NCBI RefSeq assembly: GCF_000190695.1
Contig: NZ_GL870929.1
Span: forward strand, 1,956,784 to 1,988,783
Direction of reading: 5' to 3'
DNA: 32,000 bases
DNA from: Kingella denitrificans ATCC 33394
Lineage (GTDB): Bacteria; Pseudomonadota; Gammaproteobacteria; Burkholderiales; Neisseriaceae
The translations under genes were made by a program, and so were the position numbers. Shown here in pieces: positions 20,030 through 21,861 of this stretch. The stretch's first letter is position 1. Each line of letters starts with the position of its first letter. The notes under the pieces are model-generated. The model did not search any database. It saw only the letters and a program-made list of their open reading frames with translations, and was not told where the DNA came from.

Positions 20030-20767
20030 CTATTTTTTTGTTTTGGTTTGGTTTTTAAAGTCGGGGGAACGTGCCAAAGCATCAATGCGCGTAATGGCAT
20101 TTTCCGGGGGTTTAACCCCTGTTATCTCCTTTAACCGCCGTGCGATAAACTCCTGTATTACCAATGCCTTTGGGGGTTTACCCCCTTCGGGGATAGGGTC
20201 GTAGAATTCCTTAATCACTTCCGTTGCTACTTGGTATTCGGGCGTTGGGTGCTTGGGGGTATAGTCCAGTAATTGGATGATGGGCTTCTCTGTACTTTCA
20301 GGCTGCCTTTGCGTTTCAATCCGTCTTTCTGTGTCGCTCGCTCCCCGCATCTGCCTTTCCCTCTTGATTAAATCTTGTTTGAGGGTCAGGCAGTCTTCTT
20401 TTTGCGCCCATGCAATCAACACCATTTTTTGAACGGTGGTTCTCTTCGGGTCTATATCGCGTATTGAGAACTCGTCTTTGGCTTGGTTTGCCCTGTATGA
20501 ATAAGAATTCTGCCAGCCGTCTTCGCCGATTAAAAACAATTCATGCACTTGCAACGTTTTTAACACAATGCCGCCTAAAAACGCCTGCATGGCGATTATC
20601 GCCCTGCGGCATTGTTCATGATGTTCTTTCCCTACGTTGTCGTAACTACTGAAAGCAGGGTCAATGCCGCCCCATAGCAATGCCGCCTGCTCCAACGTTA
20701 ATAAAGGGGCAAGACTCCAATCGGATAGGTCGGGTAAATCCCGCAATGTTAATTTGGTATTGCTCAT
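20030..20767 (-). CDS. 245-aa protein of unknown function, partner of the ATPase
   Basis: ORF 20030..20776 (GTG). I prefer the ATG at 20767, which has an SD AGGGG overlapping the ATPase TAG. The product starts MSNTKLTLRDLPDLSDWSLAPLLTLEQAALLWGGIDP... and has a charged, Lys-rich C-terminus. No domain recognised. Confidence 0.65.
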   Translation of the reverse strand: MSNTKLTLRDLPDLSDWSLAPLLTLEQAALLWGGIDPAFSSYDNVGKEHHEQCRRAIIAMQAFLGGIVLKTLQVHELFLIGEDGWQNSYSYRANQAKDEFSIRDIDPKRTTVQKMVLIAWAQKEDCLTLKQDLIKRERQMRGASDTERRIETQRQPESTEKPIIQLLDYTPKHPTPEYQVATEVIKEFYDPIPEGGKPPKALVIQEFIARRLKEITGVKPPENAITRIDALARSPDFKNQTKTKK

Positions 20768-20778
20768 TTTCAGCACCC

Positions 20779-21861
20779 CTATTCCACATTCTCATTTATC
20801 CACGCTTGCAGCATGGGGCTGTTGATTCGGAATGTGCCGCCCGAATCCTTGGCCATCAAATCCTTGCGCAGCAGCTTTCTGACGGCGTTTTGCACGCTGC
20901 TTGCCTTCACGGTTTCCACGCCCAAGGTGCAGGCTGCTTTCGCCCTGAATTCCGCGCCGTATGGGCTGGTGTCGCCCCGTGCGACGGATTGCAGCAGCAG
21001 CCGCTCCATTGCGCTTAATGCGTTCCATTGGCGGGGGAAGTTGCCGTTTTCCTGCATTTGCGCCAAGCGGGCATTGGCCGCCGCTTCCAAGGATAGGGCG
21101 GGGTTGATGATTAAATCCTGAATCACGGCGCGGATGTACATGGGGCTTTTGTCGAACTGCACGAAAACCGAATACAGTTTATCCGCGTCCAAATCCTGCC
21201 CCGTCCTTTCGCGGTAAACGCCGGCCAGAAAGTCGGTAAATTCCCGCCCAAGCGTGGGGAAGTCAAGCGCATGCGAAAAGTGGAAAAACGGGGCTTTGAT
21301 GTCGTTGAACATAGCGCGAAGCCCGTTGGTGCTGCTTCCCGTGAACAGCGTTTTGACGCGGTTTTGATGGATATCCAGCCCGGTTCTCAAACTGCGTATC
21401 ATGCCTTCCGCACGGGGGATACGCGCCAATTCCTGCGCTTCGTCCAGTAGCAGCAGCGTGGGGCGGTCGTCTGCCGCAATATGGGCGATGATTTCGCTCA
21501 CGGCGGGGATTTCCTGCTGCTGCGTTTCCTTCTCTATGCCTACGCCGAAAACTTCTATTTTGGTGAAGCTGCCGAAAAAGGTTTTTACGCCGCTGCCGGT
21601 GCGGATGTTCAGGGCGAAGCGGTGCAGGGCCTCGTGGAAAAACCGTGCGGGGTCGGCGGTGTCCCTGTTGTCCATGAAGGAAAAATAGAACACGTTGAAG
21701 CCGTCTTTTTCGGCAGCGGGGGCAATATCGTTGGTAAGGAACTGCGTTTTGCCCATCCTGCGCGGGGCAAATAGCGTGAATGCGCTGGATATGCCGCTTT
21801 TCAGGCTGCCCAGCAGGGCGGCGGCAAGTTCCGTCCGTGGGAAATATAAGGGGTCTTTCAT
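20779..21861 (-). CDS. ATPase_2 / COG1672-like P-loop NTPase with C-terminal winged-helix-like region
   Basis: 360 aa. Walker A is FAPRRMGKTQFL and Walker B is TLLLLDEAQEL. The C-terminal segment is LSAMERLLLQSVARGD...SSVQNAVRKLLRKDLM. Confidence 0.75.
   Translation of the reverse strand: MKDPLYFPRTELAAALLGSLKSGISSAFTLFAPRRMGKTQFLTNDIAPAAEKDGFNVFYFSFMDNRDTADPARFFHEALHRFALNIRTGSGVKTFFGSFTKIEVFGVGIEKETQQQEIPAVSEIIAHIAADDRPTLLLLDEAQELARIPRAEGMIRSLRTGLDIHQNRVKTLFTGSSTNGLRAMFNDIKAPFFHFSHALDFPTLGREFTDFLAGVYRERTGQDLDADKLYSVFVQFDKSPMYIRAVIQDLIINPALSLEAAANARLAQMQENGNFPRQWNALSAMERLLLQSVARGDTSPYGAEFRAKAACTLGVETVKASSVQNAVRKLLRKDLMAKDSGGTFRINSPMLQAWINENVE

Follow-up and report, generated by a model that had tools for sequence, protein, structure and literature searches.

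The window analysed here is a 32,000-nt stretch of the genome of Kingella denitrificans ATCC 33394, in which two adjacent genes lie in a small island at a tRNA-Leu gene. One (20779..21861) encodes a 360-aa ORC/Cdc6-like AAA+ nucleoside triphosphatase of the ATPase_2/AAA_14 type with a C-terminal winged helix, hereafter the ATPase; the other (20030..20767, with an alternative GTG start at 20776) encodes a 245-aa two-domain protein whose fold has no match, hereafter the partner. All coordinates are those of the window, and every feature of the satellite remnant that carries these genes is on the (-) strand. Both genes exist as described and are transcribed together, yet they do not form a dedicated pair; we find them to be two evolutionarily independent units. 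That a broken phage satellite here brings together two independent units is very likely as far as structure and evolution go. The best explanation overall says more and is probable: a self-regulated ATPase and a partner belonging to the satellite backbone have met in a decayed satellite at tRNA-Leu.

Distribution of the two genes

An earlier interpretation, made from the letters without database searches (the sequence-only reading), had joined the ATPase and the partner into one defence module, in which the partner would act as effector or adaptor. Such a two-gene module fails, because the gene families do not co-occur, an outcome which that reading had itself named as refuting it. Relatives of the ATPase are encoded in 224 stretches of other genomes, from Neisseriaceae, Pasteurellaceae, Cardiobacteriaceae, Moraxellaceae and other Proteobacteria, and the 80 best loci (L001-L080) were used for a census. 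A hidden Markov model (HMM) of the partner, applied to all six-frame open reading frames (ORFs) of these loci, gave a single match, in L011; the other 79 have no partner. No conserved downstream gene of the ATPase was found among the 80 loci either, as the 37 downstream neighbours in the same direction belong to 28 groups with no relation to each other. The reverse census covered 28 partner-bearing loci (L081-L108). Among them, the ATPase HMM matched only the seven loci of the lineage with a 97%-identical partner (L093-L099), and at least five other lineages of satellites have the partner and no ATPase. In these ATPase-free loci the order is int, partner, AlpA, HTH_39, (Terminase_2), primase, DUF927 (L081-86) or int, Phd/PIN and then the partner and the rest (L087-90), while L091 is an ATPase-free remnant with the partner and KilA-N.

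The partner evolves with the satellite that carries it. Between satellites, its identity is 40-50%, compared with 41-50% for alpA, 41-49% for the primase and 47-56% for DUF927. Since it diverges in step with the backbone, we consider the partner part of the vertically inherited backbone of a satellite family of Neisseriaceae.

In the window, the stop codon TAG of the ATPase gene (20781-20779) is followed, after an 11-nt gap, by the partner ATG at 20767, with the sequence AGGGG overlapping the stop codon, and there is no terminator between the genes. This arrangement, correctly described from the sequence, had been taken as translational linkage and a sign of pairing. In other satellites, the partner lies 14-62 nt behind whatever gene precedes it, be it int, PIN or an antitoxin. 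As the partner closely trails such varied genes, the 11-nt junction is no evidence for dedicated pairing, and the linkage loses its meaning as a sign of it.

Two loci close to the pair in arrangement were considered separately. The 299-aa protein encoded in L011 shares only the C-terminal domain of the partner (hhalign probability 97.5%). L100, a 95%-identical sibling of the window element, was considered as an ATPase-free sibling or empty site and rejected: it retains the last ~200 nt (~66 codons) of the ATPase gene and no more of it, and this residual 3' end marks it as a decay product. The same locus has the partner fused in frame to AlpA through a frameshift (P0002; L100 1430-2732; 304-329 aa).

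The ATPase and the repeats at its promoter

An exact protein look-up traced the window to Kingella denitrificans and identified the ATPase and the partner as WP_003784446.1 and WP_003784444.1; neither record names a function. Both ORFs and the Walker motifs proposed from the sequence are present. The Walker A motif FAPRRMGKT (residues 31-39) and the Walker B motif LLLLDEAQEL (residues 136-145) are invariant or nearly so across 39 relatives. In Pfam, the ATPase matches AAA_14 (PF13173) with 29.3 bits (E 9.4e-07), marginally above the 27-bit gathering cut-off; its match to ATPase_2 (PF01637) scores 22.9 bits, under the cut-off of 33.2 bits, and by score it does not belong there. Most homologues have a precomputed match to PF13173 and many also to PF01637, and the family as a whole is borderline for ATPase_2.

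In the AlphaFold2 model of the ATPase (predicted local distance difference test score, pLDDT, 77), the P-loop core is accompanied by a lid and, at the C-terminus, by a winged helix with helices at 303-313 and 320-332 and strands at 336-338 and 344-346; the winged-helix-like C-terminus suggested from the sequence is thus present in the model. A Foldseek search ranked 2fna (7.7e-11) and 2qen (1.2e-10) first, both with probability 1.00, followed by ORC/Cdc6, CED-4 and MalT, and the assignment to an ATPase_2/COG1672-type fold therefore stands, though the Pfam score is below threshold. The two top structures are the archaeal ATPase_2 proteins SSO1545 and PABY2304. Like the ATPase, they are ~350 aa long and combine a P-loop AAA+ core and a helical lid with a winged helix at the C-terminus. 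The fold is of their kind; the low template modelling score (TM-score) of ~0.36 stems from domain orientation and two low-confidence loops. Unlike them, the ATPase is bacterial and horizontally mobile and has cognate repeats at its own promoter, and identity to them is 15-17%. A sequence search of the PDB with the ATPase gave no match.

The family is large, forming 480 clusters or more in the protein collection. Its distribution is patchy, with the insertion point differing in nearly every genus, and relatives of 31-38% identity occur on 230 plasmid records. On one plasmid, pMKPA34-1 of P. aeruginosa (L109, 5476-7116), a 31%-identical homologue directly follows a lone umuD. Public records name homologues 'selenocysteine synthase', 'protoheme IX farnesyltransferase' or 'putative DNA-binding protein'; such names look like propagated annotation errors.

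The ATPase gene of the window starts from a near-consensus promoter (TGGACA-17-TATAAT, 21920..21892) matching at 11 of 12 positions. Ahead of it stands an intrinsic terminator with an 11-pair stem followed by a T-run (21940..21967), which shields the cassette from upstream transcription and lies within a block (21997..19569) 97% identical to L094. Four ATTAG(A/C)(C/T) copies extend over the promoter (21862..21920). Two of them, at 21912-21906 and 21893-21887, are direct copies of ATTAGAC, and the other two are inverted variants at 21884-21878 and 21868-21862, running to the ATPase start codon. Hence the description of the pair as its own transcription unit holds, with the TATAAT promoter, the duplicated ATTAGAC and the downstream hairpin all in place.

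Similar arrays accompany the family. For L001-L080 and L109, we analysed the 130 nt preceding the ATPase gene. Most loci have there 3-8 copies of a locus-specific 7-8-mer (ATTAnnN), such as AATTATAC, AATTATGC, AATTAGAC, ATTAGAT or ATTAGCA, with copies overlapping the -10 box and extending to the start codon, and in 53 of 77 loci at least three copies belong to one ATTAnn class. The top motif has a density of 22.3 per kb in this region and of 0.22 per kb in the rest of the loci, a ~100-fold ratio that is somewhat inflated, as the motif was picked from the same upstream region. ATTATGC-type repeats are also found at a 31%-identical plasmid homologue. Moreover, bases 5-6 of the repeat vary together with the recognition-helix residue that follows the invariant Gln324: counting distinct helix/motif combinations, Gly goes with TA (12 of 12), Ser with GA (12 of 15) and Thr with TG (6 of 7). 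Because the repeat type covaries with the recognition-helix residue, binding of the ATPase at its own promoter is implied. Cognate repeats at the own promoter that covary with the recognition helix were taken as the mark of an autoregulated DNA-binding protein, and this is what was found. Judging from these sequence patterns, the winged helix would read the repeats, and the ATPase would regulate, most likely repress, its own promoter.

Searches for a defence system gave little. Neither the ATPase nor the partner had a match at E <= 1 in PADLOC-DB v2.0.0 or a meaningful match in NCBIfam and PHROGs, in agreement with the initial impression that no named defence system corresponds to them. Weak matches to the PADLOC candidate PDC-S01 (E ~1e-4 to 1e-3) came from the Walker B region of three ATPase relatives; the similarity is confined to the generic P-loop core, and the window ATPase itself has no match to this candidate at E <= 1. 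In a tblastn search against isolated phages, the partner had no match and the ATPase one weak match. We found no relevant literature on PF01637, COG1672 or DUF234 in defence, nor on Neisseria satellites. The sampled contexts of the ATPase mix housekeeping genes (UvrD, phosphotransferase system, transporters) with accessory ones (HipA, SIR2_2). The defence-like neighbours are Mokosh (two), AbiU, SoFic, a DRT reverse transcriptase, MzaA, Hhe (two) and PDC-S37 (two); the matches of UvrD neighbours to GajB models are generic. HipA/HipB-type toxin-antitoxin genes were seen near ATPase homologues in Acinetobacter and Polaromonas (L051, L110, L114).

The partner and the region upstream of alpA

In the AlphaFold2 model of the partner (pLDDT 86), an alpha/beta N-terminal domain (~10-125) is followed by a long helix and by a charged, disordered linker that leads to a helical bundle at the C-terminus (176-238). 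The partner has no match in Pfam, PADLOC, NCBIfam or PHROGs, and a Foldseek search of the model against PDB and BFVD returned nothing below E 0.1; the top PDB match, a weak one, was a TEA three-helix domain. A match of the partner profile to archaeal PolB among PDB sequences (E 0.08) was dismissed as noise. The family is small, with 33 clusters at 90% identity and 130 representatives in 1.84 billion proteins. Its members are mostly of 220-270 aa, the shorter ones looking like fragments, and none of the 130 representatives is long enough for a fusion to another domain. One distant family member directly follows an integrase, and a scan of viral contigs with the partner yielded one locus, itself on a satellite-like contig.

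Downstream of the partner gene lies a conserved hairpin/terminator (19953..19992) with the outer stem ACGGTTAAACC / GGTTTAACCGT and a T-run. The 150-nt intergenic region containing it has a folding z-score of -6.6. The hairpin occurs once in each of the 28 partner-bearing loci, starting ~37-45 nt after the partner stop codon; its outer stem is invariant in sequence, and the inner stem covaries. It is followed by the alpA control region (19880..19952), with conserved TTGCCTAACCCCC ... TGCA(A/G)AAT boxes; the conserved TTGCCTAACCCCC and TGCAAAAT boxes stand between the T-run of the hairpin and alpA, and would constitute a promoter. The conservation of the hairpin and of the alpA region was established in an alignment of nine satellites whose proteins are 40-50% identical. 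The palindrome is absent downstream of the partner gene at two distant partner-family loci, and hence the hairpin is specific to the Neisseriaceae subfamily.

The hairpin motif was also not found between the ATPase gene and alpA in two partner-less satellites, L005 and L007. Just upstream of alpA, these encode proteins of 277 aa (L005, 8001-8834) and 297 aa (L007, 7088-7981). They were considered as partner relatives and rejected, as profile comparison showed no relationship. Since their profiles are unrelated to the partner, different satellites fill the site upstream of alpA with different genes, and the site may have a positionally conserved, sequence-variable function.

AlpA is the helper-induced activator of phage-inducible chromosomal islands (PICIs) of Gram-negative bacteria, for which no master repressor is known (PMC6092414). 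Given the expression of the partner from the int-side operon and the conserved element before alpA, the partner is a reasonable candidate for a satellite regulator, and this role is more likely for it than that of an effector.

The satellite and its cargo slot

The element is inserted at tRNA-Leu(tag) (24225..24309, identified by ARAGORN), its integration site. Directly downstream is the gene of a tyrosine-recombinase integrase with a P4-type arm-binding domain (22838..24016; Arm-DNA-bind_3 1.4e-27, Phage_int_M 1.7e-24, Phage_integrase 3.4e-20), followed by a PIN-domain fragment, the debris of a toxin-antitoxin system (21989..22546; Pfam PIN 9.4e-07, covering only profile positions 56-116). 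Beyond the ATPase gene, the partner gene and the hairpin are alpA (19673..19879; Phage_AlpA 1.9e-08 and HTH_17), encoding an AlpA/Vis-type regulator or excisionase with the 68-aa gene call used in relatives, and a truncated HTH_39 gene (19569..19670) that ends at a deletion junction (19569-19573). Pfam and ARAGORN thereby support the flanks given by the sequence-only reading, that is, a P4-type integrase, toxin-antitoxin debris, alpA and tRNA-Leu.

In L093-L099, the intact element occupies the same site between bfr/tRNA-Leu and rnhA. In these contigs, int and a short stretch of variable content precede ATPase, partner, AlpA and HTH_39, after which come several small ORFs, the primase (Zn_Ribbon_Prim/DUF7146/Toprim_3) and the DUF927 helicase. 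The window element is 95-97% identical to intact elements of the L093/L094 type and lacks L094 positions 9767..17415, a 7.65-kb deletion within the HTH_39 gene that removed the HTH_39 C-terminus, the small ORFs, the primase and the DUF927 helicase. At the junction, both flanking alignments overlap by ~5 bp. Thus, the 'mini-island' recognised earlier is indeed an island at tRNA-Leu; compared with its relatives, it is evidently a deletion derivative, the defective remnant of a ~12-kb PICI/P4-like satellite.

In Gram-negative PICIs such as EcCICFT073 and in P4-like satellites, int, alpA and primase/replicase all point the same way, and accessory genes are found beside int or at the opposite end of the element (PMC6092414; PMC10085698). 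The present satellite family shares this architecture, the length of ~10-12 kb and the location at a tRNA gene. An integrase and an AlpA-type regulator in the same orientation next to an attachment site are found both in the window and in the relatives; the primase/replicase module is present in the intact relatives and deleted from the window copy, which for this reason is a remnant and not a functional satellite. The family differs from the described PICI/P4-like satellites in its Neisseriaceae host and in the conserved 245-aa gene and hairpin before alpA, and its window copy is defective. A small-terminase gene (Terminase_2) is present in some relatives (L081 and L084-86) and in none of the Kingella lineage, and no Psu, Delta or Sid was seen among the Pfam hits of these satellites. 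The main texts of PMC6092414 and PMC10085698 do not mention 'Neisseria'.

In the satellite family as a whole, int is followed by a variable slot, the partner and the conserved hairpin, and these by alpA, HTH_39, small ORFs, the primase and the DUF927 helicase. In sister satellites, this int-to-partner slot is empty (L081-86, L102 and L106-108) or holds Phd/PIN (L087-90), RelE with an HTH_3 antitoxin (L105) or SoFic (PADLOC 1.3e-121, 404 bits; Fic_N/Fic/SoFic-like_C) with a 62-aa ORF (L103, 5779-6879, and L104, 4418-5518). SoFic is a known single-gene defence system. Even among the 95-97%-identical Kingella elements, the stretch from int to the ATPase cassette varies: the window has PIN debris there, L094 has an HTH_3 gene and L093 an 88-aa ORF, and window positions 22379..21997 are shared with neither L093 nor L094. 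The int-proximal stretch is therefore a hot spot for cargo, occupied here by the ATPase cassette from its own terminator and promoter onwards.

The ATPase is also found on other satellites. An integrase, alpA, primase or DUF927 of this satellite type is present within ~6 kb in 12 of the 80 ATPase loci and absent within this distance from the other 68. The ATPase directly follows int in L005, L007, L011 and L024 and follows the DUF927 helicase in L008, L014, L015 and L049; the cassette thus uses either of two accessory positions on satellites. We conclude that the ATPase is a separately mobile single-gene cassette, comprising terminator, promoter, repeat array and gene. In the cargo operon proposed from the sequence, the ATPase does look like cargo, with its own terminator, promoter and operator cassette in a variable slot, whereas the 245-aa gene belongs to the satellite backbone.

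Two further features lie past the satellite remnant. After rnhA there is a 20-pair inverted repeat (19455-19502; AAAAAAGCAGCCTGCACTT...), an arm of which resembles what we take to be the Kingella-type DNA uptake sequence; the Neisseria-type DNA uptake sequence GCCGTCTGAA is absent across the whole window. About 1.5 kb past rnhA, ORFs at 16592-17440 may represent a disrupted IS110-type transposase (MTTIYLGLDISKDKID...), which they resemble.

Proposed explanation and alternatives

Combining these observations, we propose that the ATPase is probably an ATP-driven ORC/STAND-like DNA-binding switch, most likely repressing itself through the repeats in its promoter and leader. In the 97% lineage, this autoregulation would also set the level of the downstream satellite gene, as a by-product of the landing site of the cassette. 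More speculatively, and by analogy with the other occupants of the slot, SoFic and toxin-antitoxin pairs, the ATPase might serve in conflicts between phage, satellite and host alone, with no separate effector; its sequence-specific DNA binding could, for instance, block replication or transcription of incoming DNA. These genes occupy exactly the same position between int and the partner, and the analogy is purely positional, as neither sequence nor domains relate them to the ATPase. The shared slot, the patchy mobile distribution and the carriage by satellites and plasmids would make a conflict role for the ATPase alone plausible from its location, and we put it forward tentatively, at somewhat less than even chances. 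The 245-aa protein, expressed from the int-side operon, might in turn act at or near the hairpin and the alpA control region, which is likewise speculative.

Several observations weigh against this explanation. The pair is tightly linked and co-transcribed throughout the 95-97% lineage, and in L011, a divergent satellite of Vitreoscilla stercoraria, the order is int, ATPase, 299-aa partner-like protein, AlpA, HTH_39, which may leave room for a lineage-specific functional link. The covariation between helix and repeats is partly confounded by phylogeny. Next, the 119 immediate neighbours of the ATPase in 61 diverse genomes are mostly housekeeping genes, few of them being defence-like, and the ATPase has no recognisable effector domain in Pfam or in the AlphaFold2 model and no match in PADLOC. 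What argues for a defence role is the position in the satellite slot only, and the regulatory role of the partner is drawn from where its gene lies and from a weak likeness of the protein to a three-helix domain that binds DNA.

The linkage and the L011 order would be natural in a dedicated two-gene anti-phage system, with the ATPase as sensor or switch and the 245-aa protein as effector or adaptor, carried as translationally coupled cargo. Such a system would also account for the 11-nt junction, the shared promoter and terminator with none in between, the retention of the pair in all seven contexts of the 97%-identical partner P0001 (L093-L099) and the lack of matches of either protein to known systems. 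Still, 79 of 80 ATPase loci have neither the partner nor a conserved downstream gene, the partner satellites of at least five other lineages are ATPase-free, the likeness of the L011 protein is limited to the C-terminal domain, the partner abuts int, PIN or an antitoxin equally tightly elsewhere, and its divergence tracks that of the backbone, making a dedicated pair highly improbable. An only slightly better case, though also an improbable one, can be made for a replication or maintenance module, in which the ATPase would be an ORC/Cdc6-like initiator and the repeats its iterons, as at archaeal origins, serving the life cycle of a satellite or plasmid. Indeed, the best structural matches are ORC/Cdc6 and archaeal ATPase_2 proteins, the former sharing AAA+ and winged helix (Foldseek 5e-08 to 1e-05) and site-like repeats beside the gene; the repeats lie directly upstream of the ATPase gene, and relatives are found on the 230 plasmid records and at least 12 satellites. 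Unlike the initiators, the family is mostly solo beside housekeeping genes (68 of 80 loci without satellite genes in ~6 kb, mostly housekeeping neighbours in 61 loci), and the satellites have a primase and a DUF927 helicase of their own. Moreover, the ATPase gene persists in the window after the loss of the replication module, and the repeats overlap the -10 box and start codon in the manner of operators.

The operator-like repeats covarying with the recognition helix would equally suit a plain self-regulating transcription factor, a STAND-like winged-helix NTPase acting on host or element genes, whose presence in the slot is incidental and which has no role in conflict. The absence of an effector domain and the mostly housekeeping neighbours agree with this, and archaeal ATPase_2 or 'SSO-type' proteins have been predicted to be regulators. 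We nevertheless consider it unlikely, as the distribution is patchy with a new insertion point in nearly every genus, the gene recurs in accessory slots of satellites and on plasmids, and within the examined loci the cognate repeat is ~100-fold rarer outside its own promoter, leaving no obvious regulon nearby. In the opposite direction, a stronger joint claim would make the ATPase with its repeats a widespread effector-less class of single-gene conflict systems, ORC-like, ATP-driven and carried by plasmids and satellite cargo slots, that exclude phages or rival elements through DNA binding only, with specificity set by one helix residue (G/S/T), and the 245-aa protein with the palindrome a master regulator or helper sensor silencing alpA; both halves holding together seems unlikely.

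Implications

A false two-gene defence candidate is replaced by two separately testable ones, and the misnaming of the ATPase in databases is flagged. One candidate is a solo ORC-like ATPase, the repeats of whose own promoter predict its DNA specificity and which is positioned as SoFic and toxin-antitoxin cargo are. Its cassette, uncharacterised and probably autoregulated, and an uncharacterised backbone gene belong to a PICI-like satellite family that is documented here in Neisseriaceae. The other candidate, the conserved gene-plus-palindrome unit upstream of alpA, bears on how Gram-negative PICI-like satellites stay silent (PMC6092414).

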